From NCBI RefSeq assembly GCF_044324875.1, contig NZ_CP172185.1: a stretch of DNA of 64,000 nucleotides; one strand, written 5' to 3'. Of this stretch, positions 14,508 to 64,000 are shown one piece after another. Position 1 is the first letter of the stretch. Every line of letters starts with the position of its first letter. The notes under the pieces were generated by a model that was not told the origin of the DNA, did not search any database, and saw only the letters and a program-made list of their open reading frames with translations. The position numbers were made by a program, and so were the translations under genes. The DNA is from Escherichia coli. GTDB lineage: Bacteria; Pseudomonadota; Gammaproteobacteria; Enterobacterales; Enterobacteriaceae.

Positions 14508-14583
<76 letters not shown>

Positions 14584-14618
14584 TTGGGTGGTCTGTGCTT
14601 TACAGCACTTTCAAATTT

Positions 14619-14694
<76 letters not shown>

Positions 14695-14851
14695 TTAATC
14701 TTCGTCTTTCGAACCGCTACTGCCTTGGCTGCCTTCACTCACCTTAGTCACTTACTTTTGTAAGCTCCCAAGGATTCGTTCAGTTGCCGCCTTGTCGCAA
14801 TTCGAAATACTGCGATTGGGTGGTCTGTGCTTTGCAGCACTTTTCAAATTT

Positions 14852-14927
<76 letters not shown>

Positions 14928-44081: not shown

Positions 44082-44157
44082 GCCCGGATAGCTCAGTCGG
44101 TAGAGCAGGGGATTGAAAATCCCCGTGTCCTTGGTTCGATTCCGAGTCCGGGCACCA
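44082..44157 (+). tRNA. pheU: tRNA-Phe (GAA)
   Basis: Exact 76-nt GCCCGGATAGCTCAGTCGGTAGAGCAGGGGATTGAAAATCCCCGTGTCCTTGGTTCGATTCCGAGTCCGGGCACCA. Confidence 0.97.
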
Positions 44158-44354: not shown

Positions 44355-45617
44355 ATGGCACTGACTGACGCAAAAATCCGGGCTGCAAAGCACACTGACA
44401 AGGCTTATAAACTCACTGACGGGGCTGGCATGTTCCTGCTGGTACATCCTAATGGTTCCCGTTACTGGCGTCTCCGTTATCGCATTCTGGGTAAGGAGAA
44501 AACTCTGGCACTTGGTGTATACCCGGAGGTTTCTCTCTCCGAAGCTCGTACAAAACGGGATGAGGCCCGAAAACTGATTTCGGAGGGGATTGACCCTTGC
44601 GAACAGAAAAGAGCTAAAAAAGTAGTCCCTGATTTACAACTCTCTTTTGAACATATTGCACGACGCTGGCATGCCAGTAATAAACAATGGGCACAATCAC
44701 ACAGCGATAAGGTACTCAAAAGCCTCGAAACACACGTTTTCCCCTTTATCGGCAACCGGAACATCACAACACTCAATACCCCGGACCTGCTTATCCCTGT
44801 TCGTGCTGCAGAAGCTAAACAAATTTATGAAATCGCCAGTCGTCTGCAGCAAAGAATATCTGCTGTAATGCGTTATGCCGTACAGTCTGGCATCATCAGA
44901 TATAATCCTGCTCTGGATATGGCTGGCGCATTGACCTCTGTAAAACGACAGCATCGCCCCGCTCTTGATCTTTCACGTCTGCCTGAACTTCTGTCGCGTA
45001 TTAACAGTTATAAAGGTCAGCCTGTCACCCGGCTTGCTGTTATGCTGAATTTACTGGTTTTTATTCGCTCCAGTGAACTCAGATATGCCCGCTGGGCTGA
45101 AATTGATATTGACAATTCAATGTGGACTATTCCAGCCGAACGCAAACCTCTGCCAGGGGTAAAATTCTCACACCGGGGCTCCAAGATGCGAACACCACAT
45201 CTTGTGCCACTCAGCAAACAGGCTGTAGCCATACTGACAGAACTTCAGACATGGGCTGGTGAAAATGGTCTGATCTTTACGGGAGCACATGACCCGCGTA
45301 AACCAATCAGTGAAAATACCGTAAATAAGGCCCTCAGAGTGATGGGGTATGACACAACCAAGGAAGTCTGTGGCCATGGATTCCGGGCGATGGCGTGCAG
45401 TGCATTGATTGAATCAGGTTTGTGGTCCCGCGATGCTGTGGAACGTCAGATGAGCCATCAGGAGCGTAATGGTGTACGTGCTGCGTATATCCATAAAGCA
45501 GAACATCTGGAAGAACGTCGACTGATGCTACAGTGGTGGGCAGATTTTCTGGATGCGAACAGAGATAAGGGTATCAGCCCGTTTGAATATGCAAAGATTA
45601 ACAATCCATTAAAATAG
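44355..45617 (+). CDS. P4-type tyrosine integrase
   Basis: 420-aa ORF; N-terminus MALTDAKIRAAKHTDKAYKLTDGAGMFLLVHPNGSRYWRLRYR (phage-integrase arm domain); C-terminus with HGFRAMACS and RAAYIH (R..H..R..Y catalytic signature); sits about 200 bp from the tRNA. Confidence 0.9.
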   Translation: MALTDAKIRAAKHTDKAYKLTDGAGMFLLVHPNGSRYWRLRYRILGKEKTLALGVYPEVSLSEARTKRDEARKLISEGIDPCEQKRAKKVVPDLQLSFEHIARRWHASNKQWAQSHSDKVLKSLETHVFPFIGNRNITTLNTPDLLIPVRAAEAKQIYEIASRLQQRISAVMRYAVQSGIIRYNPALDMAGALTSVKRQHRPALDLSRLPELLSRINSYKGQPVTRLAVMLNLLVFIRSSELRYARWAEIDIDNSMWTIPAERKPLPGVKFSHRGSKMRTPHLVPLSKQAVAILTELQTWAGENGLIFTGAHDPRKPISENTVNKALRVMGYDTTKEVCGHGFRAMACSALIESGLWSRDAVERQMSHQERNGVRAAYIHKAEHLEERRLMLQWWADFLDANRDKGISPFEYAKINNPLK

Positions 45618-46068: not shown

Positions 46069-49000
46069 ATGGATGAAAATGCTTTAGGGTTTGCCTCATA
46101 CTGGCGCAACTCGCTTGCGGACGCTGAGTCAGGAAAGGGCAGTTTTGAACGGAAAGACGCCAAAAATTTCACTCACTGGCATGGGATAGCGGCGGGACGT
46201 CTTGACGAAGCGATTGTCAGTAAATTTTTTAAGGGAGAAAAAGACGATGTCGAAACGGTCGATGTCATCTTGCGCCCAAAAGTTTATTTCCGGTTACTGC
46301 AGCATGGTAAGGACCGTTCTGCAGGTGCGCCTGATATTGTTACCCCGATAGTGACGCCAGCCTTGCTAAGCCGTGAGGGTTTTTTATATCCGACGCCAGC
46401 GACCTCCATTCCCAGAGACCTGCTTGAACCTTTGCCAAAAGGAGCATTTTCGATTGGTGAGATTGGGCAGTATGACAAATACAAGACGACCCATACCACG
46501 TTCTCTATCAACTTTGATGACAGCGTTGATAAGACTGCCGAAACGGATGAAGAACGGGAAGAACGATATGCAGCCTTGCAGCAGGAGTGGCGTCAATATC
46601 TGGATGATTCAGAGAGGCTGCTGAAGAACGTTGCCGGCGACTGGATTAAAAATCCTGAGCAATATGAACTCGCTGAGCACGGTTATATTGTTAAAACGGC
46701 GCAATCTGGCGGTGCCAGTTTCCATATCCTTTCTCTTTATGATCACCTGCTTGTTTGCAATAAGGATGTGCCGCTCTTCAATCGATTCGCCTCGCGAGAG
46801 GTTCATGCTGCAGAGTCTTTGCTGGCCCCTGGAGCAAAATTCAGCGACAGGCTTGGACACTCCGGAGATAAGTTTCCGCTGGCAAAGGCTCAGCGCGATG
46901 CCTTAAGCCATTTTCTGGATGCTAAACATGGCGATATCCTTGCTGTTAATGGCCCTCCTGGAACCGGAAAAACCACGCTGGTGCTTTCTATCATCGCCAC
47001 GCAGTGGGCCAGAGCGGCTCTCGAAAAATCTGAGCCTCCGGTTATTATCGCGACTTCAACGAATAACCAGGCTGTAACGAACATTATTGAGGCATTCGGG
47101 AAAGACTTTTCGCAAGGTTCAGGTGCGATGGCCGGGCGATGGTTGCCAGAGCTGAAAAGCTTCGGCGCTTATTTTCCCTCAGGCAGCCGTAAAGCTGAAG
47201 CAGCCAAAAAATATCAAACTGAAGATTTCTTCAACCAGGTTGAGTCAAAAGAGTATGTAGAAGATGCACTGCTGTTTTATCTGGAAAAGGCTAAGGCAGC
47301 CTTTCCTGAAAAAGAGTGTTCATCCCCTGAAAAGGTCATTGAACTCCTGCATGGTCAGTTGGCAGCAAAATCCGAGCAACTGATAAGACTGAACGCAACA
47401 TGGCAAAAGTTAAGCCAGATTCGGGCTGCGCGTGAGCTTATTGCTAATGATATTGAGCAATATCTCAATAATTTAAATAAATTACTTTCCGGACAAGAAC
47501 AAAAAATCACTCTACTGAAGAGTGCTAAAACGGAATGGAAAAAATATCGCGCCGGTGAATCACTGATCTATTCATTATTTTCCTGGCTTCCGGCGGTTCG
47601 CAGTAAGCGACAGTACCAAATACAGCTGTTTCTCGAAGATAAATTAGGTGCGCTGATTGCAGGAAATCAATGGTCTGATCCTGAAACTATCGAACGTAAT
47701 ATTGATGGGCTGCTCAATTCCGCTGAGCGCGAGCAAACAACATACCGGCAGCAGATTGACTCCGCCCATGAAATCATTCTTAAAGAACAGCAGGCGGTTC
47801 AGGAGTGGCAGAGACTGGCTCTTGATTTAGGGTATGAGGGCGACGAGGAACTGAGCTTCTCACAGGCCGATGAACTGGCTGATACGCAGATTCGCTTCCC
47901 TGCATTTTTACTGACGACTCACTACTGGGAAGGTCGTTGGCTGATGGATATGGCCAGCATTGATGATCTGCAGGAAGAGAAGAAGAAAAAAGGCGCTAAA
48001 GGGGTAACCGCCCGTTGGCAACGTCGAATGAAACTCACTCCATGTGTGGTGATGACATGCTATATGCTGCCCGGCAATATGCAGATAAGTGAGCACAAAG
48101 GACAGCGTAAATTCGAGAAAAGTTATTTGTATGATTTTGCCGATTTACTCATTGTCGATGAAGCCGGGCAGGTGCTTCCTGAAGTGGCTGCTGCCTCGTT
48201 TGCATTAGCTAAGAAGGCATTAGTGATTGGCGATACGGAGCAGATCCCGCCAATATGGAGTATTGCTCCTGCGATTGATATCGGTAACATGCTGGCGGAA
48301 AAAATTCTGTCTGGCAGTACGCAAGAAGAGATTACCGAGAAATATACGGCAATCGCAGACCTTGGTAAAAGTGCCGCATCTGGCAGCGTTATGAAAATAG
48401 CGCAGTTTGCTTCGCGCTATCAATATGATCCCGAACTGGCTCGTGGTATGTACCTATATGAACACCGCCGGTGCTACGACAATATTATTGGATACTGTAA
48501 TACGCTCTGCTATCACGGTAAGTTGTTGCCTAAAAGAGGGCGTGAAGAGAGCAATTTAATGCCCGCAATGGGGTATCTCCATATTGATGGTAAAGGAGAG
48601 CTGGCAAGTAGTGGAAGTCGATATAATTTGCTTGAGGCTGAAACGATAGCGGTCTGGTTGGCAGAGAACCAGCAAAATATTGAAGCGCATTACGGTAAAT
48701 CGCTTCATGAAGTTGTCGGTATTGTGACGCCTTTTAGCGCTCAGGTATCCACTATCAAACAGGTGCTGGGCAAACAAGGTATCAGTACAGGCACGAATGA
48801 AAAGTCGCTCACAGTGGGCACCGTGCACTCTCTTCAGGGAGCGGAAAGAGCGATTGTGATATTCTCGCCAGTCTATTCAAAACATGAAGACGGCGGGTTT
48901 ATTGATAGCGATAACAGCATGCTGAATGTTGCAGTCTCCCGTGCGAAGGACAGTTTTCTGGTCTTCGGCGATATGGACCTGTTTGAGGTCCAGCCAGCCT

Positions 49001-49584
49001 CATCGCCACGGGGATTACTGGCAAAATACCTCTTTGAGTCAGAGAAGAATGCGCTCTCTTTTGATTATAAAGAGCGTAAGGATTTAAAAACCGCCGGGAC
49101 CAAAATCTACACACTTCATGGTGTGGAGCAACATGATAATTTCCTGAATCAGACATTTGAAAATACCAGTAAACACATCACGATAGTTTCTCCATGGCTG
49201 ACCTGGCAAAGGCTGGAGCAAACCGGTTTTCTTGATTCCATGATTGCGGCGTGTTCACGTGGAATTAACGTCACGATAGTCACTGACAGAAGCTACAACA
49301 CTGAACATAATGATTTTGAGAAGCGAAAAGAGAAGCAGCAGAACTTTAAAGCGGCGCTGGAGAAACTGAATGCGCTGGGTATTGCTACAAAGCTGGTAAA
49401 CCGTGTTCATAGCAAAATTGTTATTGGTGATGATGGTTTGCTGTGCGTGGGATCGTTCAACTGGTTTAGTGCGACACGGGAAGCGCGATATGAACGATAC
49501 GATACATCAATGGTTTATTGCGGTGATAACCTGAAGGGTGAGATTGAGGCTATTTATAATAGTCTTGAGAGGCGGCAGGTTTAG
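46069..49584 (+). CDS. Upf1-like SF1 helicase fused to a C-terminal PLD-family (single HKD) nuclease domain; candidate anti-phage defence protein with Mokosh type II-like architecture
   Basis: 1171-aa ORF. Walker [10 protein letters not shown] (aa 295-303, nt 46951-46977); Walker [10 protein letters not shown] (nt 48145-48171); helicase motifs [19 protein letters not shown] and [16 protein letters not shown] (nt 48814-48972); C-terminal HSKIVIGDD...GSFNW = H-x-K-x4-D...GSxN (nt 49408-49464). Located beside the island integrase. Confidence 0.8.
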
Positions 49585-49692: not shown

Positions 49693-51192
49693 TTATCTTC
49701 TGCCCGGAAGAATCAGAGGCTGTGGTTTCAGACTGTCTGCCGGTACATTCCTGTCTCCGTTAAAAACAATAACGGGTTCATTATCTTCGTCTGTCAGCGG
49801 ATTGAATGGCGGTATATTTTCAGTACGAATGCCGGTCAGCCACTGAAAAATACCTGCGAAATGACGGGCACTGATTTTTCTGCTGACGGACTGATGAGAC
49901 GTGATGTCACTGGCGGTAATAATCAGGGGAACGCTGTAGCCTCCTTGTATATGGCCATCATGATGAACAGGATTAGCACTGTCGCTGACCGACAGACCAT
50001 GGTCAGAAAAGTAAAGCATGGCAAAATGACGGGAGTGCCGGCGAAGGATACCATCAAGCTGACCGAGAAAGTTATCCAGTTTACTGATGCTGGCGAGGTA
50101 ACAGGCAATCTTTCGGGGATACTGCTCCAGGTAATGATTCGGCCAGGAGTTAAGTCGGTCACACGGATTCGGATGAGAGCCAATCATGTGCAGGAATATC
50201 ACCTTCGGAGAGGATTTATCCGCCAGTGCACGTTCTGTTTCCTGTAACAACAACATGTCATCCGTTTTACGGGAAGCAAAGCTGCCTTTCTTGAGGAAAA
50301 CGGTATGCTCCGCATCAGAAGCAATAACAGAGATGCGTGTATCATGCTCCCCCAGTTTTCCCTGATTGGATATCCACCATGTGCTGTATCCTGCTTTTGC
50401 TGCCAGCGCCACCACGTTGTTGCCGGAGTCAGGGTTCTGCTCATAGTCATAAATCAGTGTCCGGCTCAGGGAAGGTACGGTACTGGCTGCTGCCGATGTA
50501 TAGCCGTCAATAAATAAACCGGGAGCCGTATTCAGCCATGGTGTGGTTGGCACGGGATAGCCATATACCGACATATAATCCCTGCGCACACTCTCACCAG
50601 TAACGATAACAATCGTGTCATACAACGGTGTTCCCGGCAGGATTTTCCAGTTGTCAGCCCCGTGCTGACTCAGTTGTTTATAACGCTGCATTTCACGCAA
50701 TGTGTCAGTTGTTCCCACAACAATTCCTTTAACCATCCGCAACGGCCAGCTGTTTACAGAGCATAATACGAACAGCAGCAGTGCCAGCCAGTTACGGTGA
50801 CCGCGGTGGTGTGTCCGCCAGAAAATCACCATGAATACCAGAATCGCGGCACTGACCAGAAAATGATAAACAGGAATCATCCCGGTAAACTCTGCAGCCT
50901 CATCAGCCGTGGTCTGCAGCAACGCGACAATAAAACTGTTGTTGATTTTACCGTACGTCATACCCGCAGGCGCATACAGTGCACAACAGAACAGAAATAA
51001 CAGCGTTGTAATGGATGTGAGGGTATTTCTGTGTGCAAGGAGCAGAAGGAGAAACAGAAGCAGCACATTTCCTGTGGCATTCTTCTCAGTGTATCCGCAT
51101 GCAATTGTGGTTATCACAGAAATAACAAAAAAGAATAAAAACAATAAAATCCGGGGTGTGTCGCCCGGACAAAACAGTTTTCTGATATTCAT
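49693..51192 (-). CDS. Sulfatase-family inner-membrane protein (phosphoethanolamine-transferase-like)
   Basis: 499-aa ORF; N-terminal ~130 aa strongly hydrophobic (multiple TM helices), C-terminal domain with VTGESVRRDY and HMIGSHPNP motifs resembling EptA/OpgE/LtaS-type transferases. Confidence 0.7.
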   Translation of the reverse strand: MNIRKLFCPGDTPRILLFLFFFVISVITTIACGYTEKNATGNVLLLFLLLLLAHRNTLTSITTLLFLFCCALYAPAGMTYGKINNSFIVALLQTTADEAAEFTGMIPVYHFLVSAAILVFMVIFWRTHHRGHRNWLALLLFVLCSVNSWPLRMVKGIVVGTTDTLREMQRYKQLSQHGADNWKILPGTPLYDTIVIVTGESVRRDYMSVYGYPVPTTPWLNTAPGLFIDGYTSAAASTVPSLSRTLIYDYEQNPDSGNNVVALAAKAGYSTWWISNQGKLGEHDTRISVIASDAEHTVFLKKGSFASRKTDDMLLLQETERALADKSSPKVIFLHMIGSHPNPCDRLNSWPNHYLEQYPRKIACYLASISKLDNFLGQLDGILRRHSRHFAMLYFSDHGLSVSDSANPVHHDGHIQGGYSVPLIITASDITSHQSVSRKISARHFAGIFQWLTGIRTENIPPFNPLTDEDNEPVIVFNGDRNVPADSLKPQPLILPGRR

Positions 51193-51373
51193 CGGAGTAT
51201 ATCGACAACATTATTATGAAGAGAACAGGATAATAAAAATCAGAAATTATCTGTAAAACAGATAACAGACAACCCTGCAGCAATAGACTGCAGGGTGTTT
51301 CTGTTTAATTGCAGAAGATATACAATTATATTAATTACAGAATATTCGTGATTATCTCTCGGGAACAGTGTTG

Positions 51374-52114
51374 TCAGAAGTTATAAGTCACACCAAGCAT
51401 GATGTCATGACTTTTAACATCAACTTCTGACTTATATTTATCGCCCCACTCGTCCTTGTAACTCACACTGCTGTCACCTGCATCAAGATAGCGATAGCTG
51501 AGGTCCAGAGCGATATCCGGGGTTACGTCATAGCGGACACCCGCGCCAAGGTTCCATGCGAAGTTGTCAGCAGAGCCTGAACGTGACAACGATTCGCGAC
51601 CACTGCTTCCGTACTCATAATCCCAGGTACTGATACCGGTTGTTTTCTGGTGAATTCTGGCGTAGCCAATCCCTGCAGATATCCAAGGTGTGAATGCGCT
51701 GTCATTCCGGAAGTCATAGTACGCATTCAGCATTAGTGTGTTGACTGACACCTCATTCTTCAGGTCATCACGCCAGTAACCACCTGACCAACTGTCTTTA
51801 TCTACGTTATACTTCGAATCAGCTTTTCCACGAGCGTAAAACTCCAGTTCTGTACGAACCGGAATACTGAACTGCGGATAAAAATCATAACCAGCCGCGA
51901 TACCACCACTGAATACCGTATCATGGTCATCGCCGCCTTTATACTTTGACGTTTCTTCCTCATCTCCTGACAGGAAACGCTGGTCTGAAAGTGACACCAC
52001 AGAGGTACCGGCTTTACCGGTCAGATAAAAACCGCTTTTACCTTCCTCAGCACCTGCATTTGCTGCAAATACACAGGCTGCGGCCACCACTGAAACAGCA
52101 AAAACCTTTTTCAT
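51374..52114 (-). CDS. Outer-membrane beta-barrel protein (Opa/Ail/OmpA-like)
   Basis: 246-aa ORF with signal peptide MKKVFAVSVVAAACVFAANAGA, alternating amphipathic strands rich in Y/G/D, and C-terminal ...GVTYNF (terminal Phe typical of OM beta-barrels). Confidence 0.7.
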   Translation of the reverse strand: MKKVFAVSVVAAACVFAANAGAEEGKSGFYLTGKAGTSVVSLSDQRFLSGDEEETSKYKGGDDHDTVFSGGIAAGYDFYPQFSIPVRTELEFYARGKADSKYNVDKDSWSGGYWRDDLKNEVSVNTLMLNAYYDFRNDSAFTPWISAGIGYARIHQKTTGISTWDYEYGSSGRESLSRSGSADNFAWNLGAGVRYDVTPDIALDLSYRYLDAGDSSVSYKDEWGDKYKSEVDVKSHDIMLGVTYNF

Positions 52115-53440: not shown

Positions 53441-55420
53441 TCAGGTGCCGATTATGCCGCCGTCGGCTTTTACGATAACGACAGTTGAGGAGCGCGGACG
53501 ACCAGCCTTATCGCCGTCAGGCCAGCTTGATACTGCCGTCGGATGCTGCGGATCGCTAAGCCCTTCGCTTGGCTCGCCAGGGTGCTGGATGTTAATAAAC
53601 AGCGTCCGGTTATCCGGAGTGAACGCGATGCCGGTGATTTCGCAGCCGCGCGGGCCGGTCAGGAAGCGGCGGAACTCATTGGTACCGGGGATCGTCGCCA
53701 CCATCTGGTTGTTGCCCATGCCTTTGTAATCTTTACTATTGATGGTTGATGACGACACGTCGGTCTGGATCCATAGCACGCCGCGGTGATCGAAGCTCAG
53801 GCCATCGGCGCTGCCGAATTCCGCCCCCTTCATGCTGCCTTTGGTTTCCGGTTTGTCCGTATCGGTGCGACCGCCCATCACAAGAATATCCCAGGCAAAC
53901 TGCAGCGCGGTCGGGTCACCGTTATGCTCCAACCAGTGAATGATGTGGCCGTAAACGTTTTTGGCGCGCGGGTTGGCCGCATCCACTGGCGCTTTTCCTT
54001 CCTTACCGCGATCGCTGTTGTTGGTGAGCGTGCAGTAAACGCTGCCGGCGTGATATGGATCGACCGCAATCCACTCCGGGCGGTCCATTTTAGTGGCCCC
54101 CACGGCGTCTGCCGCCAGACGGGTTTTAATCAACAGGTCGCCCTGGTTTTCAAACCCTTTACTGGCGTCGAGCCCATTTTGTCCGAACACCAGCGGTAGC
54201 CACTCGCCTTTGCCGTCGTCGTTAAATTTCGCCACGTACAGAGTGCCTTTTTCCAGCAGGTGCATGTTGGCTTTGCGATCCTGCGGGTTGAATTTTCCTT
54301 CCGAGACAAATTTATATATGTATTCGAATTTCTGGTCATCGCCCATATAGACCACAACGCGGTTATCCGGGGCAATTGTCACCGCTGCGCCTTCGTGTTT
54401 GATGCGACCAAGCGCGGTGTGCTTGCGCGGCACTGAATGCGGATCGTATGGATCGATTTCCACCACCCAGCCGAAGCGGTTCGGCTCGTTCGGCGTGGCG
54501 TCGACGCTGAACCTTTTATCCACTTCGTTCCAGCGGTAAGAGTCGTCGCTCCCGCTGATACCGTAACGTTTTTCCAGCGGGTTCATCTCTGCTTTTTTTA
54601 CGAAAATATCGGACCAGTTCTCTTCACACGTCAGATAGGTGCCCCACGGCGTAAATCCGTTGGCACAGTTCTGCATGGTGCCGAGAATGATTTCGCCTTT
54701 CGGATCGTCAACTGTTTGCATCAGTGGGTTATGCAGCGCCGGACCGGTGATTTTCATCGGCGTGTTAACGGTGATGCGGCGTGCGAAAGATGACGGGCGC
54801 ACCACTTCCCAGCCCAGGGGCACTTTTTTTACTTCAATGACCGACACGCCCATCGCGTTCTGGCCTTTAAGAGCTTTATCGGCGCTCCAGTTGGCATCGC
54901 CATCTTTAAACAGTAGACCGTTATCGATGTATTCATGGTTTATGGCAAGCAGGCCGTGATCGGAGCTGTTCCCGCCCTGCGGCAGGCTAAACCACGCCAT
55001 GCCGTCGTGGTGCATCCCGGCCTGCGCCGCCTGTTCTTCCGTGGTGTTGCTACCGTCGGTTTTAAAAACCGGCAGATTTCCGGCAATCCCGGTGGCGTCG
55101 CCCCATTTGTAGAAGGGCTTCGCGATGTATCCTTCCGGCACGATAACGGTATCTTCCGTGGAAACCGGCAGGCTGGTGAAACCGAGCGTCGTCGCTTTGC
55201 CGAGGTTACCGCTTGCTTTGGAGACCACTTTCGCCAGCGCGTTTTCCTGTTTCAGCAGAAATGGGAACGCTGCCGCGGCACCGGCGACCGTGCCGGCCTG
55301 TAACAGACGGCGGCGTGACAAATAAACTTCCGCCACCTGCGAAAACGCGCGGTTATCGCTCGGGTTACTGATTTCTTCACTATGCTCACGTTTGAATAAA
55401 GTTTTTAACGGTCTGCCCAT
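53441..55420 (-). CDS. PhoX-family phosphatase (DUF839) with Tat-type signal peptide
   Basis: 659-aa ORF; N-terminus ...SRRRLLQAGTVAGAAAAFPFL (twin-arginine-like); body matches the beta-propeller PhoX/DUF839 pattern. Confidence 0.75.
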   Translation of the reverse strand: MGRPLKTLFKREHSEEISNPSDNRAFSQVAEVYLSRRRLLQAGTVAGAAAAFPFLLKQENALAKVVSKASGNLGKATTLGFTSLPVSTEDTVIVPEGYIAKPFYKWGDATGIAGNLPVFKTDGSNTTEEQAAQAGMHHDGMAWFSLPQGGNSSDHGLLAINHEYIDNGLLFKDGDANWSADKALKGQNAMGVSVIEVKKVPLGWEVVRPSSFARRITVNTPMKITGPALHNPLMQTVDDPKGEIILGTMQNCANGFTPWGTYLTCEENWSDIFVKKAEMNPLEKRYGISGSDDSYRWNEVDKRFSVDATPNEPNRFGWVVEIDPYDPHSVPRKHTALGRIKHEGAAVTIAPDNRVVVYMGDDQKFEYIYKFVSEGKFNPQDRKANMHLLEKGTLYVAKFNDDGKGEWLPLVFGQNGLDASKGFENQGDLLIKTRLAADAVGATKMDRPEWIAVDPYHAGSVYCTLTNNSDRGKEGKAPVDAANPRAKNVYGHIIHWLEHNGDPTALQFAWDILVMGGRTDTDKPETKGSMKGAEFGSADGLSFDHRGVLWIQTDVSSSTINSKDYKGMGNNQMVATIPGTNEFRRFLTGPRGCEITGIAFTPDNRTLFINIQHPGEPSEGLSDPQHPTAVSSWPDGDKAGRPRSSTVVIVKADGGIIGT

Positions 55421-57310: not shown

Positions 57311-57347
57311 GTAAGCGTACAGCGAGGGCCGTATTGACGGGGATGTG

Positions 57348-58886
57348 TTATTCAGCTGGCAGTGCTATGCGCCACGGAAGCAGTTCGCTGACCCGGTTGA
57401 CCGGCCAGTCTGCTATGACGCCAAGCACATGGCGAAGGTAGCTTTCTGGATCCACGTCATTCAGTTTGCACGTCCCTATCAGGCTGTACAGTAGCGCTCC
57501 CCGCTCACCACCATGGCCAGAGCCGAAGAACAGGAAGTTTTTACGACCCAGACTTACCGCCCGCAGGGCATTTTCAGCGATGTTGTTGTCGATTTCCACC
57601 CAGCCATCGTTCGCATAGTACGTCAGTGCCGGCCACTGGTTAAGTGCGTACGCGAACGCCTTCGCCAACTCTGAGTGTCGCGACAGGGTCTTCATCTTTT
57701 CACGCAACCAGCTTTCCAGGGATTTCAACAGCGGTTTCGTTTTTCGCTGACGTTCAGCAAGCCGCTGCTCTGCCGGCATTCCCCTTATATCCGCCTCTAT
57801 GGCGTACAACTGACCGATCTGCTCCAGGGCTTCTTCCGTCAGTGCTGACGGGATGCGGACGTGCACATCGTGGATCTTTCGGCGGGCATGAGCCCAGCAG
57901 GCAGCTTCCGTTATCCCACCATTGCGATACAGCTCGTTGAACCCGGCGTACGCATCCGCTTGCAGCACACCGCTGAAGCAAGCAAGATGAGTCTGCGGAT
58001 GGATGCCTTTTCTGTCCGGGCTGTAAGCGAACCACACTGCAGGTGCCAACGCTGACCCGGCATTGCGGTCATCACGAACATACGCCCACAACCGCCCGGT
58101 CTTCGTCTTCTTATTACCCGGCATCAGTACCTGGACCGGGGTATCATCGGCATGGAGTTTGCCGTCAGTCATGACATAGCCATGAAGCGCCTCTTCCAGC
58201 GGAGACAGCAGCCGGCAGCATGCATCCACCCAGCCCGACAGCAGTGAACGGCTCAGCTCCACACCTTGCCGGCCGTATATTTCTGACTGGCGATACAGCG
58301 GGGTGTGCTCTGCATACTTCGAGGTCAGCACGCGGGCCAGCAGCCCCGGTCCGGCGATACCCCGCTCGATGGGCCGCGAAGGTGCAGGTGCCTGCACGAT
58401 GGCATCGCACTGAGTACAGGCATGTTTTTCCCGTACCGTCCGGATAACCCGGAAGGCGCTACGCATCAACTCCAGCTGTTCGGCGGTATCCTCGCCCAGA
58501 TAGCTCAGTGAACCGCCGCAGTTCGGGCAGCACGGCGCCGCAGGCAACAGTCGCTTTTCGTCACGGGGTAGTGATTCAGGGAACGGCTTACGGATGCGGG
58601 TCTGACGCAACGGACGCTGTACTGCCGGGTCATACACCCTACCAGTCAGCGTATCGCTCTCTTTCTGAAGCCGGTTCAGATCGGCTTCCATTTGTGCGAT
58701 ACGGCGGGAGACTTTTTCGGAACGACTGCCGAAGTTCATCCGGCGGAGTTTATCCAGCTGCGCCTGCAGATGGTCTATTTCGCGCTCCCGGTTGCTCAGC
58801 TTTTCCTGCAGGGCGTGGATCAGCGCTTCCTGTTCGGCCAGGCGCTGTTTCAGCAGGAAGATGTCGTCAGAAGAGATGTCGTTCAT
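57348..58886 (-). CDS. IS66-family transposase TnpC
   Basis: 512-aa ORF with N-terminal leucine-zipper/coiled-coil ([24 protein letters not shown]), Cys-rich zinc-finger region (CPNCGG...CTQCD) and DDE core. Confidence 0.88.
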
Positions 58887-58935
58887 AAGCCCGTATTTTA
58901 CCGGGCTTATTCTGTGACAACCAGGATAAAGAGAT

Positions 58936-59283
58936 TTACAGCATGGTCAGGGAGGTCAGCAGCCGCTTAGGCTGTCGCCAGTCGATACCTTCCAGCAGCA
59001 TCGCCAGCTGCGCCTGTGTAAGGAACACTTTGCCATCACGGGCTGACGGCCAGGCGAAGCGCCCACGCTCCAGCCGTTTGGTCAGGAGGCACAGTCCGTC
59101 ACCGGTGGACCACAGCAGTTTAACCTGACTGCCGCTGCGGCCCCGGAAAATGAAAACATGGCCGGACATGGGATCGTCTTTCAGCGCCGTCTGTACTTTC
59201 GCAGCCAGGCCGTTGAAGCCATTTCTCATATCGGTGATACCGGCAACCAGCCAAATTTTGGTCCCGGAAGGTAAAGGGATCAT
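58936..59283 (-). CDS. IS66 accessory protein TnpB (orf2)
   Basis: 115-aa [34 protein letters not shown]... Confidence 0.85.
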
Positions 59284-59681
59284 CGCTTCAGTTCCTGTAT
59301 CAGCAGAGTCAGGAGCTTTTCGCTGACATTGCCATTGAAGCGGAGCGTCCCGTGCCGGAACGTTACCTCACAGCTGATACTGAGGGTTTCCGGGTCCTCT
59401 GCGAGCGATTCTGGCTGTTCGGCAGCTGCATCGAGAGTCACAGGAAGTAGCTGGGGGCTCTCTGAAGAAGGTAATAGCAGCTTTCCCTCGCGCCATTGTT
59501 GTCGCCATTTGAACAACAGATTGGCGTTAATGCCATTTTCAAGAGCAAGTTTTGAGATGGATATCCCGGGTTCACAGGAGGCAGCAACGAGCTGCTGTTT
59601 AAATTCGGGAGGATAATTAGGGCAGCCTTTTCGCCTGCCGGGAGTCACATTTTTCTGCATATCTGACACTTTGGTTCCCAC
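59280..59681 (-). CDS. IS66 accessory protein TnpA (orf1)
   Basis: 133-aa ORF; 4-bp overlap with tnpB. Confidence 0.8.
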   Translation of the reverse strand: MGTKVSDMQKNVTPGRRKGCPNYPPEFKQQLVAASCEPGISISKLALENGINANLLFKWRQQWREGKLLLPSSESPQLLPVTLDAAAEQPESLAEDPETLSISCEVTFRHGTLRFNGNVSEKLLTLLIQELKR

Positions 59682-59752
59682 TACTTATTTGGTGGACACC
59701 ACTTTGTCTAATTCGTCAGATTCTGACCAGACGGTTCAGGCTGTACGCTTAC

Positions 59753-61833
59753 GCCTGACCGGTGTCTCTGGTGACATATTCCGGAGCTCCGGAGAGAGTA
59801 AAGGTAACGCGATCATCGGCAGAAGCATCTCCATACTGCAGATGCCCGTCGTTGGGGATCATGGCCAGTTTGCCGTAATAGCGATACACATTGTATTCAT
59901 CCTGTGTATAGCCAAAGAAGGACTGATTATTCAGTTGTGAACCCGACAGGCTGACAAACTCGCTGGCAAGAAGATGACTTCCCGTATTATCCAGTTTGTT
60001 CGCGTCAATCAGCAGATTATTACCGGCCGAAATTCTGGCATCCCCCCCTGTTGCACCAACATCGACGCGTGTTGTGCCAGTCAGAAATTTCCGGGTGGCT
60101 CCCTTTTCAGTCGGAACGGCCCATGCCTCAAAACCACCACCGGCAGTACCGCTCCAGGACTTCACATAATATCCCCATCCATTTTCACCTAAATCGCCCA
60201 CTCTGACTGAAACAGAATTTACACCATCAGGTACTGCGACATTCTCAACCGGAATGTATGATTTTGTCTCATTTATACCCTCCCGCTGATTCAGTAAATG
60301 TCCGGTTCTGATGGTGATATCACCGCGGGTGGTTTCGATATTCCCGGAGGTATTAATCACTTCAGCATTCGCGGCACCACTGACATCTTTCTGCATCACC
60401 AGGCTGTAACCCGCCAGCATATCGCCGTGATGGTTCCGGATGGTGCTGGCAAACAGCGAGAGGTTATTGCCCGCATACAACAGTGCGGTGTTAATGACTG
60501 CCCCGGCGACCGTTAACACCAGACTACCCGTCGTGCCGGTAAAACCGTCGAGAGTGATATCTCCCCTGCTGGTCAGGCTGACGTCCCCGCCTGCCTGCAG
60601 GCTGCCGCTGGCATTCATCGCAATCCCGCTGCCGCTCAGTGCCGTGGTGCCGTTGCCGGCGGTCAACTGGCCATTGTTGGTCAGCCTGCCTGCAGCATTC
60701 AGCGTGATACCGTTGCCCTGCAATGTGGCGCCATTGGTAATATCACCCTGGCTGCTGACGGAGAGTTGTTTATTCGCGGCGATAACGCCCTGTGCGGTCA
60801 AACCACGTGTGAGCTTCAGCGTCAGGTTACCGAGTGCAACCAGCTGGCCCGCGCCGCTGAGCGAGACCATTTCAGCAAGCATATCACCGCCGCTGAACAC
60901 CTTCCCGCCGGCGTTGTTCAGGCTGTTCCCTTTTATTGTCAGGCCCTGATTACCCAGCAGCGTGCCGCTGTTGGTGATGGTCTGCGTGTTGACGTTCAGT
61001 TGTGCAGCCTGGAACAGGCCACGGTTGGTCAGACTGTTACCTGTGAGCGTTGCCTGATTCGCCGCCATCACAGTGCCATTACCGGCAAGCTTCGCCACGT
61101 TCAGCAGCAGGTCAGTGGCCTGTAGCCAGCCACTGCCACTGTAGTCCGGCGTGGTGAACGTCAGCTCACCGCCGGAAAGAATCTTGCCACTGTTGTGGGC
61201 CTGCGTTGCCGCGCTGAGCGTGGTTTTACCGTTGCCCTGAATGGTGCCGTCATTAGTCAGCACAGGTGCAGAAAGCGCTGATACGTTCTGACTGAGAAGC
61301 ACACCGCTGGTCTGGTTGGTCAGGGCATTCAGCAATGTAAGAGTCAGCCCGCTGTCGCCCTGCACACGACCTGAGTTGGTCAGCGAACTGGCGGTGATTC
61401 GGTTATCCGCCCCCTGAAGCTGCCCACTATTGCTGATGTCTCTGGCGTTGACGTTTAATGTACCGCCTGTCAGCATTTTACCGTGCTGTTGCAGATTACC
61501 ACTGAGTGTCACATTCAGGCTGTTAACACCACTGATTTCGCCACCGTTGCTGAGCGAATCACCATTCACTTCCAGCGTCTTCGCGCTGATTAATCCCTTG
61601 TTACCCAGCACTTTCCCGGTAAGGCGGGCATCGCCCAGGGCGGTAATTTTGCTGCCGGTGGCAGCAATAACATCGCCACTCAGGGTCAGAGCCAACTCCA
61701 GCGCACTCTGAACAGCACCGCTGCTGGTCAGGCTGCTGGCATCCAGAGTAATGTTCTGCCCCTGAATCCGGCCGCTGTTGGTCACATCTCCTGCGCTCAG
61801 CGTCAGCGAGTTCTGGCTCGATCCGCGCACCAC
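59753..61833 (-). pseudogene. Internal fragment of a filamentous-haemagglutinin / CdiA-like two-partner-secretion exoprotein
   Basis: 694-aa minus-strand ORF made of degenerate repeats (...LTNSGRVQG..., ...LNNAGGKVFSGGDM..., ...GNSLTNRGLFQAAQLNVN...); no TPS secretion domain; reading frame terminates inside the IS66 terminal repeat. Confidence 0.7.
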
Positions 61834-61872
61834 TTATCCCGAACTGCGTCAGCAGTTGATCGGAGGTACACC

Positions 61873-62424
61873 ATGAAACGCATTCTGACCCGTGGCCTGG
61901 CGCTGCTGATGCTGATGCTCGCCGGCTGCAGCATCGAGGTCACCGAGTACCGGCAGCAGCAGCCCGCCCTCGACATCTTCCACTATTTTCAGGGTCGAAC
62001 CGAGGCGTGGGGGATGGTGCAGGATCGCCGCGGTAAACAGCTGCGCCGCTTCCATGTAGCGATCGATGGCGACGTCGTCGGCGACACCCTGACGCTCCAT
62101 GAGCGCTTTGTCTATGACGATGGCGAGAAACAGCAGCGGGTGTGGCGCATTCGCCGCACCGGCGATAACCATTATCAGGGCACCGCCGGGGATATCGAAG
62201 GCGTGGCCAGCGGCCAGGCGGCAGGCAATGCCTTTCACTGGCGCTACAGCATGAACGTCGAGGCCAGCGGCAGCCGGTGGCTGCTGCACTTTGACGACTG
62301 GATGTTCCTGCAGGACGGCAGCCATTTGTTTAACAAAACCGAGATGAAGAAATTCGGCATTACGGTGGCCACCGTGACCCTTTTCTTTACCCGAACCACA
62401 GCAGAAGAGAGGACAGCGCCATGA
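61873..62424 (+). CDS. Putative lipoprotein
   Basis: 183-aa ORF with signal peptide and lipobox MKRILTRGLALLMLMLAGCS; stop overlaps the next gene's start (ATGA); high-GC codon usage. Confidence 0.65.
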   Translation: MKRILTRGLALLMLMLAGCSIEVTEYRQQQPALDIFHYFQGRTEAWGMVQDRRGKQLRRFHVAIDGDVVGDTLTLHERFVYDDGEKQQRVWRIRRTGDNHYQGTAGDIEGVASGQAAGNAFHWRYSMNVEASGSRWLLHFDDWMFLQDGSHLFNKTEMKKFGITVATVTLFFTRTTAEERTAP

Positions 62425-63380
62425 ACACGCAACCTGTCATTGGGATCAGCGGATGTTTAACCGGCTCAGCCGTGCGATTCGACGGCGGGCATAAGCGTAT
62501 GGGCTTTGTGATGGATGAGCTCGCGCAGTGGGTGGCGTTTAAGCCCGTCTGCCCGGAGATGGCGATCGGCCTGCCCGTTCCCCGCCCGGCGCTCCGGCTG
62601 GTGCAGACCCCGGTCGGGGAGATCCGCATGCGCTTCAGCCACGCCCCGCACGAGGATGTGACGGAGAAGATGGCCGATTTCGCCAACGCCCATCTGGCAA
62701 CCCTGGGCGAGCTGTCGGGCTTTATCGTCTGCGCCAAATCGCCGATCTGCGGGATGGAGCGCGTGCGGCTGTATGATGAAAAAGGCAATCGCGGGCGTAA
62801 GGAAGGCGTGGGGCTGTTTACCGGCGCCCTGATGGCGCGCTACCCGTGGCTTCCGGTGGAAGAGGATGGCCGGCTGCACGATCCGCTGCTGCGGGAGAAT
62901 TTTGTCGAGCGCGTCTTCGCCCTGCATGAACTCAACGCCCTGCGCGCCCGCGGCCTGACCCGCCACGGCCTGCTGGCCTTTCACAGCCGCTACAAGCTGC
63001 AGCTGCTGGCTCACCACCAGGCGGGCTACCGCGAGATCGGCCCCTTCGTCGCCTCGCTGCATGAATGGGAGGATCTGGAGGCTTTCTTCGAGGTCTATCG
63101 CGAAAAGCTGATGGCGATCCTCAAGCGGCCCGCCTCTCGGAAAAACCACACCAACGTGCTGATGCATATTCAGGGTTATTTCCGCGACCAGCTGAACAGC
63201 CGCCAGCGCGGCGAGCTGCGGGAGGTGATCCTCAACTATCGCGCCGGGCTGCTGCCGATCCTCGCGCCGCTGACGCTGCTTAAGCACTATCTGGCCGAGT
63301 ATCCGGATCGCTACCTGCAGGCGCAGAACTATTTTGACCCCTACCCGCAGGATCTTGCCCTGCGCCTGACGGTGAACTGA
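62421..63380 (+). CDS. YbgA-like protein (DUF523 plus DUF1722-type)
   Basis: 319-aa ORF MNTQPVIGISGCLTGSAVRFDGGHKRMGFVMDELAQWVAFKPVCPEMAIGLP...; high GC and Leu/Arg/Ala-rich composition. Confidence 0.6.
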   Translation: MNTQPVIGISGCLTGSAVRFDGGHKRMGFVMDELAQWVAFKPVCPEMAIGLPVPRPALRLVQTPVGEIRMRFSHAPHEDVTEKMADFANAHLATLGELSGFIVCAKSPICGMERVRLYDEKGNRGRKEGVGLFTGALMARYPWLPVEEDGRLHDPLLRENFVERVFALHELNALRARGLTRHGLLAFHSRYKLQLLAHHQAGYREIGPFVASLHEWEDLEAFFEVYREKLMAILKRPASRKNHTNVLMHIQGYFRDQLNSRQRGELREVILNYRAGLLPILAPLTLLKHYLAEYPDRYLQAQNYFDPYPQDLALRLTVN

Positions 63381-63395
63381 GGGAACCTGGGCCAG

Positions 63396-63616
63396 CTGCC
63401 CGGCGGCGCTGCGCTTGCGCGGGCCTGGGAGGGGATCCCGCAGGCCTCCTCAGGAACGTAGGCCGGATAAGGCATTTATGCCGCCATCCGGCACAACCAC
63501 AGGTATGGAGCTTGAAGTGTCCTGCCCGGCGGCGCTGCGCCTGCCGGGCCTGGGGGGTATCCCGCAGGCCTCCTCAGAAACGTAGGCCGGATAAGGCATG
63601 TATGCCGCCATCCGGC
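63396..63616. repeat. Two tandem ~97-bp REP/BIME-type palindromic repeat units
   Basis: Units 63396-63492 and 63522-63616, about 90% identical, each containing TAGGCCGGATAAGGCAT(T/G)TATGCCGCCATCCGGCA. Confidence 0.8.
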
Positions 63617-63692
63617 ATAAATGGAGCGCACCAGTCGTAGCCCGGCTAAGCGTAGCGCCAGCCGGGAACGCTCCTTCGACAACGCTATCGCA

Positions 63693-64000
63693 TCAGAACC
63701 ACGCCTCAAACATCCCGCCGACGTTCAGCGAATCCAGCTGCTGGTCTTTGGTGCCGTTGACCTTAGCGGTATGCTCGTTGTCCACCTGACCGCCGGTCAC
63801 GTAGAAGCGCAGCATCGGACGGAACTCCGGCCCCATGCCGATGGCGATGTTCTGCGACAGCGTCAGCTTCCAGCCGTGGTTATCCCCGCCCTGGTCGTAG
63901 TCCACGCGCTGGTAGCCCGCTTCCAGCCAGGTGGAGTGCACGTCGTTCCAGAAGTACATCGGCCGCACGATGGCACCGTAGTTTTTGCGGTTGTCGGTAT
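63693..64000 (-). CDS. LamB-family sugar porin, C-terminal part (gene runs off the window end)
   Basis: Minus-strand ORF ending ...DSLNVGGMFEAWF*, resembling maltoporin-type C-termini; frame open to the window edge. Confidence 0.55.
   Translation of the reverse strand, partial: TDNRKNYGAIVRPMYFWNDVHSTWLEAGYQRVDYDQGGDNHGWKLTLSQNIAIGMGPEFRPMLRFYVTGGQVDNEHTAKVNGTKDQQLDSLNVGGMFEAWF

Follow-up and report, generated by a model that had tools for sequence, protein, structure and literature searches.

A GC-rich gene pair in a tRNA-Phe island of Escherichia coli as the likely end of a Klebsiella chromosome fragment

Where does a conspicuously GC-rich pair of genes at the end of an Escherichia coli genomic island come from, and what is it worth to its host? 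The question was raised by a stretch of 64,000 nucleotides (NCBI RefSeq assembly GCF_044324875.1, contig NZ_CP172185.1), the whole of which is called the window hereafter. At its right end, within an island at a tRNA-Phe gene, two adjacent genes encode a DUF3833 lipoprotein and a RudS-type protein, a putative desulfidase of 4-thiouridine (s4U) in tRNA. The original prediction, made from the nucleotide letters, described this pair as an abrupt switch to DNA of a different origin, starting at 61834 or 61850 and ending at 63380. According to our analysis, positions 61812-64000 are likely the left end of a fragment of about 10.4 kb from the Klebsiella pneumoniae complex, which sits in the tRNA island and derives from the chromosomal flank of a leuX attR end, with the gene pair as a probable passenger. 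The features are listed in Table 1.

Composition, source and junctions of the block

The GC content of the block within the window was 0.628, compared with a mean of 0.515 (standard deviation 0.032, maximum 0.577) for 597 other segments of the same length (2,189 bp). The GC content at third codon positions (GC3) was 0.772 for the DUF3833 open reading frame (ORF) and 0.812 for the rudS ORF, and the 36 other long ORFs of the window had a mean of 0.551, a standard deviation of 0.059 and a maximum of 0.667. Furthermore, the codon usage of the pair differed from that of the core genes (chi-square 254, 59 degrees of freedom, p 6e-26), with CTG making up 74% of the Leu codons, CGC 63% of Arg, GGC 68% of Gly and GCC 55% of Ala. 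Sliding GC, GC3 and the codon test were all in agreement with the early description of markedly GC-rich DNA with deviating codons, and the composition deviated from that of the host as it does in horizontally acquired DNA. The dominance of CTG and CGC was found as described, but the leading Ala codon was GCC and not GCG. The switch was sharp by GC3 and by homology but softer on raw GC, because the neighbouring fragment of cdiA is itself GC-rich (0.585-0.60 at 60400-61400). In addition, both limits had to be moved: the foreign DNA starts at 61812, and 63380 is merely the end of the second gene, the foreign block continuing beyond the end of the window.

The different origin was borne out by the distribution of the block: of the 5,426 complete E. 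coli genomes, just 13 contained it, 11 on the chromosome and two on Klebsiella-type plasmids at 97% identity. This left practically no room for the view that the genes are ancestral to E. coli with an atypical composition, or that the junction is an assembly chimera, and we regard that view as refuted. E. coli does possess ybgA (b0707, upstream of phr), and genes of high GC content exist in this species. However, native YbgA has 169 aa, with a DUF1722 domain and no TudS domain (PMC11417400). The product of the second gene, named 'YbgA family' in RefSeq, matched the NCBIfam YbgA equivalog over residues 160-315 with a score of 200.8, below the curated cut-off of 237. Moreover, an identical cdiA::Klebsiella junction recurred in five independently finished genomes and in further assemblies.

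The closest relatives of the block were found in the K. pneumoniae complex. In the plasmid collection, 97 of the 108 matching records were from Klebsiella. The chromosome of K. pneumoniae CP125156, which is filed within that collection, was 96.5% identical over 9.4 kb (range 96.2-96.5%) and had the same gene order. Nine further large contigs, reached through an identical XylA protein, were 96.9-98.6% identical to the block. From this similarity and the common gene order, we take them to be Klebsiella chromosomes; their native order ran from a MerR regulator through RudS and then to porin, xylA, MFS, GH43, HNH and SBD-HNH genes. The closest of them (L108) had 98.1-99.2% identity per gene. By comparison, loci from K. 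oxytoca, K. michiganensis and K. grimontii reached just 82-86% and Enterobacter-like genomes about 80%. A Klebsiella or Enterobacter-type source had been proposed; the K. pneumoniae complex, at 96-99% and syntenic, fits the first half of that proposal, while Enterobacter is excluded as a donor by its identity of only about 80%. The donor would be a lineage of the K. pneumoniae complex outside those sampled.

A scan of GTDB with the RudS protein gave 77 Enterobacterales loci and no representatives of the K. pneumoniae complex. Its row at 100% identity (L005) was only 95.7% identical at the DNA level. That record, URSI01000001.1, is a contig of 28.7 kb from the metagenome-assembled genome UMGS1307, labelled 'uncultured Clostridiales'; its RudS differs from that of the window by I109S alone, its DNA is 99% identical to the Klebsiella operon of contig L104, and judged by these matches it is almost certainly a mis-binned Klebsiella contig. 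Exact-protein look-ups with DUF3833 and RudS returned E. coli island contexts only, and the XylA look-up alone reached the Klebsiella chromosomes. A literature search of limited coverage found no paper describing the block.

The whole block was defined in E. coli ES1. It begins with the last 63 bp of a gene for a 174-aa protein, followed by DUF3833, RudS, a spacer with repetitive extragenic palindromic (REP) units, a LamB-type porin and xylA. The rest consists of an MFS_2 transporter, a GH43 glycosidase, a ScoMcrA_N-HNH gene and an SBD-HNH gene annotated as 'phosphorothioated-DNA-binding restriction endonuclease'. The REP units of the spacer, similar to bacterial interspersed mosaic elements (BIME), contain GCCGGATAAGGCAT..ATGCCGCCATCCGGC, and their copy number differs among Klebsiella strains and plasmids. 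BLAST alignments split in this spacer because of the variation in REP copy number between Klebsiella strains.

The left junction was mapped base by base from the window, an intact cdiA (L003) and a K. pneumoniae chromosome (L002). Homology to cdiA covered 59753-61819 and homology to Klebsiella began at 61812; the overlap is TCTGGCTC. Thus, the left junction is an illegitimate join at a microhomology and not the end of an insertion sequence (IS). It had been suggested to check whether the junction coincides with an IS end: no IS terminal repeat was present, and the nearest element, ISEc8, ends 2,060 bp away at 59752. An IS end was also rejected because the cdiA::Klebsiella join has the 8-bp microhomology and no IS903 sequence there.

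The gene cdiA encodes a contact-dependent inhibition toxin. Its fragment in the window is truncated at both ends and corresponds to about residues 877-1565 of the 3,236-aa CdiA of strain N1; the TPS domain, the toxin tip, cdiB and cdiI are absent. In E. coli CP034843 (L090), the same cdiA::Klebsiella junction was found with ISEc8 absent, and cdiA goes on to the toxin tip, cdiI, an integrase and tRNA-Leu. This cdiA ends in an Endonuclease_NS_2 toxin domain, and a YezG-like immunity gene follows beside the leuX integrase. In the window, ISEc8 sits between an IS3-family remnant and the cdiA fragment. It has perfect terminal inverted repeats GTAAGCGTACAGC, its flanks GCTGAGTT and GCCTGACC differ, and no 8-bp target duplication was found at its ends, so this site also marks a rearrangement. 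In strain LH50-c, ISEc8 lies at the same left-hand point in inverted orientation and the IS3 remnant resumes on its far side; hence, the order seen in the window goes back to copies of ISEc8 between which a recombination or inversion took place.

The left junction in the window is secondary and not the original edge, because E. coli LH50-c keeps 557 bp more of Klebsiella DNA. This DNA comprises the end of a DUF2878 gene and the whole 174-aa gene; it runs into the block without a break and abuts a truncated gene for an ABC transporter. The intact 174-aa gene is thus retained in LH50-c, as it is in Klebsiella (L002 11519-12043).

A second source for the pair was considered on the basis of plasmids. 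More than 100 Klebsiella-type plasmids, two of them in E. coli, carry a DUF3833-RudS-porin module beside lacYZI. In this pKPN-262-type IncF module, the same three genes have 97% identity, and at its left edge an IS903-like terminal repeat abuts the Klebsiella DNA 2 bp left of the crossover in the window. IS903-like copies also occurred in the region in L103 and L110. However, it is very improbable that the pair came from such IncF-type lac plasmids and that the junction in the window is an IS scar. The plasmid module diverges by about 2.9% from the window block and belongs to another sequence lineage, with 97.0-97.3% over the whole module against 98.1-99.2% per gene for L108, rudS alone being about equal (97.9 vs 98.1%). 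It is bounded by IS, and its porin is followed by lacY, whereas the E. coli and Klebsiella chromosomes continue with xylA, MFS, GH43 and HNH genes. Furthermore, LH50-c has its 557 bp of Klebsiella DNA on the left side of the IS903 point, where it lacks an IS, and IS903 sequence is absent from the window junction. The two edges are not one inherited breakpoint, because the plasmid lineage and the right-hand synteny differ and LH50-c shows a longer E. coli block. Their near-coincidence might be due to chance (roughly 0.2%) or to a hot spot of IS903 insertion from which the deletion in E. coli also arose; that 61810-61812, in the Klebsiella 174-aa gene, was such a hot spot and gave rise to the plasmid module as well as to this deletion is a small possibility. 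A metagenome scan for an IS903::Klebsiella junction gave 0 matches. One plasmid record had been reported at at least 99% identity; rudS was not covered by that match, and the record was not located.

The preferred source, a Klebsiella chromosome, was also indicated by the right junction, which lies outside the window. There, the E. coli copies read GATATTGATG followed directly by CGAAGGCCTGACTC, and past this point the DNA was 95% identical to the CP4-like island tail of the unrelated E. coli Z135-2 (a regulator fragment and DUF957, going on with DUF5983 and CbtA/YeeU). The segment CGAAGGCCGGACTC is the reverse complement of the 3' end of leuX, tRNA-Leu(CAA). The same leuX remnant was found in the same place in the Klebsiella-type chromosomes L109, L112 and L103. 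In L104, a complete tRNA-Leu(CAA) lies 4.3 kb off, with a small restriction-modification island between, and in L103 a CP4-like island tail (antirestriction, DUF932, RadC, DUF987) stops at the leuX remnant. Taken together, the remnants in L109, L112 and L103 and the tRNA of L104 make the Klebsiella block the chromosomal flank of the attR end of a leuX island. Most simply, the right junction in E. coli is a native boundary between island and chromosome that formed in Klebsiella.

In the proposed course of events, an island at the Klebsiella leuX gene would have moved together with the chromosomal DNA flanking its attR. Recombination among related islands would then have placed the block at the leuX, selC and pheU sites of E. 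coli, which would explain its presence at three tRNA genes: selC in ES1 and EC0585, leuX in H8 and L090, and pheU in the window. The setting resembles the known tRNA-associated CP4-like islands with a P4 integrase in E. coli and Klebsiella, which likewise start with tRNA and integrase and have mosaic cargo, IS elements and CP4-like tail genes. The capture of DNA flanking an att site has been described for imprecise excision or specialised transduction and for homology-facilitated illegitimate recombination, and this block likewise has a tRNA 3'-end repeat at one edge and a microhomology join at the other. It was different from the usual att-flank capture in that the flank is from another genus, is inverted relative to the island tRNA and now stands at three tRNA sites. 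A single inversion between cdiA and the 174-aa gene within a leuX island, at inverted 8-bp repeats, was also tried and fitted all gene orientations. It was rejected, since it predicted a reciprocal junction with the 5' part of the operon, and such DNA is absent from E. coli except for the 557 bp of LH50-c.

The RudS and DUF3833 genes

The second gene carries an N-terminal TudS/DUF523 domain (PF04463, residues 7-149, E 4.4e-37) and a C-terminal DUF1722 domain in the same polypeptide (PF08349, residues 192-309, E 3.1e-40). The protein aligned to the TudS structure 6Z92 over Cys12 and Cys44. The cluster ligands Cys12, Cys44 and Cys110 were conserved in all 73 homologues, as were Glu46 and Ser107, which correspond to Glu51 and Ser111 of RudS_KT (PP_0741), a known member of the family (PMC11417400). 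The Glu is the catalytic one, at a distance of two residues from the second Cys, and this conserved Ser precedes the third Cys by three residues. Accordingly, the second gene is, by architecture and residues, a full-length RudS, for which removal of s4U is predicted. It had been called YbgA-like with DUF523 and DUF1722 domains; the domains are present, but the name understated a full-length RudS, which differs from the DUF1722-only YbgA of E. coli.

RudS proteins have been characterised by Jamontas et al. (NAR 2024, PMC11417400). The TudS-DUF1722 protein RudS is a [4Fe-4S] desulfidase that removes s4U, a UVA-sensitive modification, from tRNA and shortens the growth delay induced by UVA; its overexpression lowers s4U 4.7- to 26-fold. 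RudS_ST from Salmonella LT2 (STM1389/ORF319) has 319 aa, the same two-domain architecture and the same three cysteines as the window protein. According to that study, RudS and TudS are both missing from E. coli, which possesses just YbgA, a protein with DUF1722 alone that is inactive on s4U in tRNA.

The RudS in the window was different from the known RudS proteins in three respects: its regulator and promoter are lost, its host natively lacks RudS, and Ile takes the place of Ser at position 109. The Ile is the only residue that differs from the Klebsiella consensus RudS protein. Position 109 was Ser in 69 of the 73 Enterobacterales homologues and in all sampled Klebsiella copies, and also in E. 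coli L082, L089, L090, L091 and L114 and in assembly L110. It directly precedes the cluster ligand Cys110 and is equivalent to Ser113 of RudS_KT, so the second active-site Ser before the third Cys is missing in the window. In the S113M mutant of RudS_KT, tRNA s4U was 0.86 of the control, compared with 0.04 for the wild type (PMC11417400). By this analogy, Ile109 argues against full activity and not against membership in the RudS family, the residue not being labelled 'conserved' in the same paper. Because L089 and L091 have the cdiA junction and yet Ser, the change arose in E. coli after this junction. It fits decay of an unregulated eraser or selection against it, without telling which. A few E. 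coli lineages would have received the Klebsiella copy without its light/stress regulator, and Ser109Ile would then have become fixed in one sub-lineage. That this change was selected since an unregulated s4U eraser is harmful seems unlikely to us; if true, the case would show, as a natural experiment, what it costs to remove tRNA modifications without regulation.

The first gene begins at an ATG that overlaps the stop codon of the 174-aa remnant. Its lipobox LAGC with Cys19 and the ATGA overlap with rudS at 62421-62424 were read directly from the sequence, as the original prediction had stated, and the Pfam domains agreed with the predicted coupling of a lipoprotein to a DUF523/DUF1722 protein. 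The DUF3833 match (PF12915) had an E of 1.9e-64 over residues 14-174 and covered model positions 2-163 of 163; the profile found 1,880 representatives at E <= 0.001. The signal peptide is MKRILTRGLALLMLMLAG-C19, and Cys19 was at least 90% conserved in 96 homologues with the consensus LxGC, from which lipidation is predicted. The protein is probably anchored in the outer membrane, judged by the Ser at +2. An AlphaFold2 model from 96 diverse homologues (pLDDT 95.6) was an all-beta barrel, in which DSSP assigned ten beta-strands following short N-terminal helices. Foldseek matched this model to CpeS (4tq2), BFA1 (5yvf), Ycf58 (3bdr) and nitrobindin with a probability of 1.0, TM of 0.52-0.63 (0.58-0.63 for the closest) and 9-16% identity. 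The predicted structure is thus a calycin barrel similar to fatty-acid-binding proteins and nitrobindin, the resemblance being one of fold only. Searches of the DUF3833 sequence against PDB and NCBIfam gave no match. From the modelled barrel, we infer that the lipoprotein might bind a hydrophobic (lipid-type) ligand.

The pair is the tail of a longer operon and not a self-contained two-gene unit. In Klebsiella, ten genes run on one strand: a MerR/MlrA-type regulator, SnoaL_2, a short-chain dehydrogenase/reductase (SDR), a FAD amine-oxidase-like protein (UfaD-like), DUF1365 (UfaO-like), a cyclopropane-fatty-acid-synthase-like methylase (CMAS), DUF2878, the 174-aa protein, DUF3833 and RudS. Adjacent genes overlap by ATGA where the boundaries were read (L002). 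Among the 77 Enterobacterales loci, RudS was near a MerR regulator in 62, after DUF3833 in about 28 and in a long operon in about 25. This link of the native Klebsiella RudS to a MerR-family regulator is as reported for E. cloacae (PMC11417400). In Rhodobacter, furan fatty acids are produced by two members of the singlet-oxygen regulon, the FAD desaturase UfaD and UfaO, a DUF1365 protein (Lemke et al., JBC 2020, PMC7380195). The furan-fatty-acid operon RSP1091-1087 of R. sphaeroides (UfaD, UfaO, CFA-synthase-like, SDR) contains the same enzyme types as the native Klebsiella operon (PMC7380195), and therefore the latter looks like a unit for membrane lipids or photo-oxidative stress with RudS appended, although the likeness to UfaD and UfaO rests on Pfam families only. 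Unlike RSP1091-1087, the window holds none of those enzyme genes.

The MerR regulator was absent from the window locus, and no sigma-70-like promoter was found on the plus strand of 61300-61873. Because promoter and regulator are lost and Ile stands at the position of a catalytic serine, the pair most likely rides along in E. coli as a dispensable passenger that is either not expressed or impaired.

The left ends of the block in other strains pointed in the same direction. The block begins at the window equivalent of 62166, within DUF3833, in the H8 group; at 62322, at a Tn3-family end, in assembly L110, which is outside the complete E. coli set; and at 63247, within rudS, in EC0585. Hence, five different nested left ends were found and one constant right end in all copies. 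Part of DUF3833 or most of rudS was missing from 5 of the 11 chromosomal E. coli copies, and the segment from the porin to the phosphorothioate (PT) restriction gene was present in all. It would follow that E. coli can do without the DUF3833-RudS end and that the part being kept is the porin-to-restriction segment.

Several of these strains had further peculiarities. In L110 (GCA_046569665.1, 13346-17334), the block copy was 99.94% identical and stood in a different mobile context: the end of the Tn3-family transposase cuts DUF3833, IS elements lie between xylA and the gene for the transporter, and the HNH gene is followed by an ars operon. In LH50-c (L114, 19900-25400), a PTS operon of the cellobiose type (IIA, GH1, IIC, IIB, LacI; GC 0.469) has been inserted between porin and xylA and brings along pieces of yicS and of a gene for adenine deaminase; in its 5' part, the porin gene of this strain has a divergent allele with about 90% identity to K. 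pneumoniae. For H8, a tandem duplication or circular intermediate was considered and dropped, the partial PT-restriction gene beside its truncated DUF3833 not being a duplicate of the full copy at that locus.

It is also conceivable that the pair is kept because it is useful, RudS shortening the UVA growth delay as an s4U eraser and the DUF3833 lipoprotein assisting; we consider this unlikely. A benefit would be in line with the native lack of RudS and TudS in E. coli and the effects of overexpression on s4U and UVA delay (PMC11417400), with the intactness of both ORFs, and with the conservation of all cluster ligands and Glu46. However, the promoter and the MerR regulator have been lost, the damage to DUF3833 or rudS in those five copies spared the porin-to-restriction segment every time, and the sole amino-acid change from the Klebsiella consensus strikes the active-site Ser109.

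The reading preferred here, an attR-flank fragment from Klebsiella with the pair as a passenger, has to be weighed against several points that speak against it. The exact donor, at 99.9% identity or above, was not found, and the best chromosome was L108. The transfer route (island plus flank) is a deduction from the att remnant. Every E. coli copy has the block, together with this remnant, in inverted orientation to the tRNA of the island, which needs at least one further rearrangement. Both ORFs are intact, and the DUF3833 protein was unchanged in 712 assembly blocks. The effect of Ser109Ile was extrapolated from a Ser-to-Met mutant of a Pseudomonas orthologue. In addition, one weak promoter match (9/12) was present at 59963-59990, and a missing consensus promoter does not prove silence, as read-through or a weak promoter could express the pair.

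The most notable features of the locus are the leuX att remnant at the far end, the full-length RudS in E. coli and the active-site change Ser109Ile. The block is a concrete case of transfer from a Klebsiella chromosome to an E. coli island, with boundaries mapped to the base and one of them at the remnant of a tRNA attachment site, and it illustrates that adjacent host DNA can travel with integrative islands from one genus to another. Contrary to the statement at species level, a small minority of E. coli has a full-length RudS, which is relevant to work on s4U and UVA with isolates. The nested left-end deletions separate a dispensable part (DUF3833, RudS) from a kept part (porin, xylose/xyloside and restriction genes). 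The process is known and the genes belong to known families; the instance is new, and the general principle is unchanged.

Island setting and neighbouring features

Table 1. Positions of the features discussed (window coordinates unless a comparison contig is named).
Feature	Position	Strand	Basis
tRNA-Phe(GAA), pheU-type attachment site; core ends, island begins	44082..44157	+	ARAGORN
Island integrase, 420 aa, GC3 0.42	44355..45617	+	ORF list
ISEc8, IS66 family, 2,442 bp, tnpA/tnpB/tnpC	57311..59752	-	Terminal repeats; RefSeq annotation of identical ES1 copy
cdiA internal fragment	59753..61819	-	98% to intact cdiA over 59753-61834; hand alignment ends identity at 61819
Klebsiella block, left 2.2 kb of a fragment of about 10.4 kb (likely)	61812..64000		Identity and synteny to Klebsiella chromosomes
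Junction, 8-bp microhomology TCTGGCTC common to cdiA and Klebsiella 174-aa gene	61812..61819		Three-way alignment
Remnant of 174-aa operon gene, last 20 codons and stop; TGA overlaps DUF3833 ATG	61814..61876	+	RefSeq pseudogene in ES1
DUF3833 lipoprotein, 183 aa	61873..62424	+	Pfam PF12915, lipobox LAGC, Cys19, Ser at +2
RudS-type tRNA 4-thiouridine desulfidase (putative), 319 aa, 'YbgA family'	62421..63380	+	Pfam, TudS structure, RudS_ST likeness
RudS codon 109 = ATC (Ile), derived	62745..62747	+	Homologue alignment
Two tandem REP/BIME-like units, about 100 nt, rudS-porin spacer	63396-63496, 63522-63620 (63396..63620)		Repeat families D1/D2, 82-88% identity
LamB-family carbohydrate porin gene, 3' end, runs off window	63693..64000	-	ORF list; RefSeq 'carbohydrate porin'; Pfam PF02264 LamB
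ES1 full block (10.4 kb)	L001 19979-30407		Comparison across genomes

The core side of the window contains purA, hflKC, mutL, frdA, groEL and aspA to dsbD and extends up to tRNA-Phe. The island beyond it had a GC content of 0.501 compared with 0.522 for the core, and a tRNA gene, an integrase and cargo of deviating composition were all present. In related E. coli islands at selC and leuX, a tyrosine recombinase occupied the equivalent position. The proposal of a patchwork island was sustained by the order of its parts: tRNA-Phe, integrase, low-GC cargo, IS3 remnants, ISEc8, the cdiA fragment and Klebsiella DNA.

Within the cargo, a 1,171-aa ORF (46069-49584, GC 0.469) stands beside the integrase. 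L108 has a gene of the helicase/PLD type (1,171 aa; AAA_11, AAA_12, PLDc_2) in its variable region on the leuX side, and the 3' half of that gene had 71% DNA identity to this ORF; therefore, similar defence-like cargo types occur in the equivalent island region of L108. At 49693-52114, a low-GC pair encodes an EptA-like phosphoethanolamine transferase (499 aa) and an adjacent small outer-membrane protein. The same pair was also found in the selC and leuX islands of other strains, and in EC0585 what is left of rudS is fused to a truncated copy of the transferase gene. A gene for a PhoX-family alkaline phosphatase (659 aa, 53441-55420) had the highest GC3 outside the Klebsiella block (0.667) and is another island module of distinct composition. 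On the minus strand of the core, three tandem tRNA-Gly(GCC) genes at 14508-14927 are an ordinary core feature.

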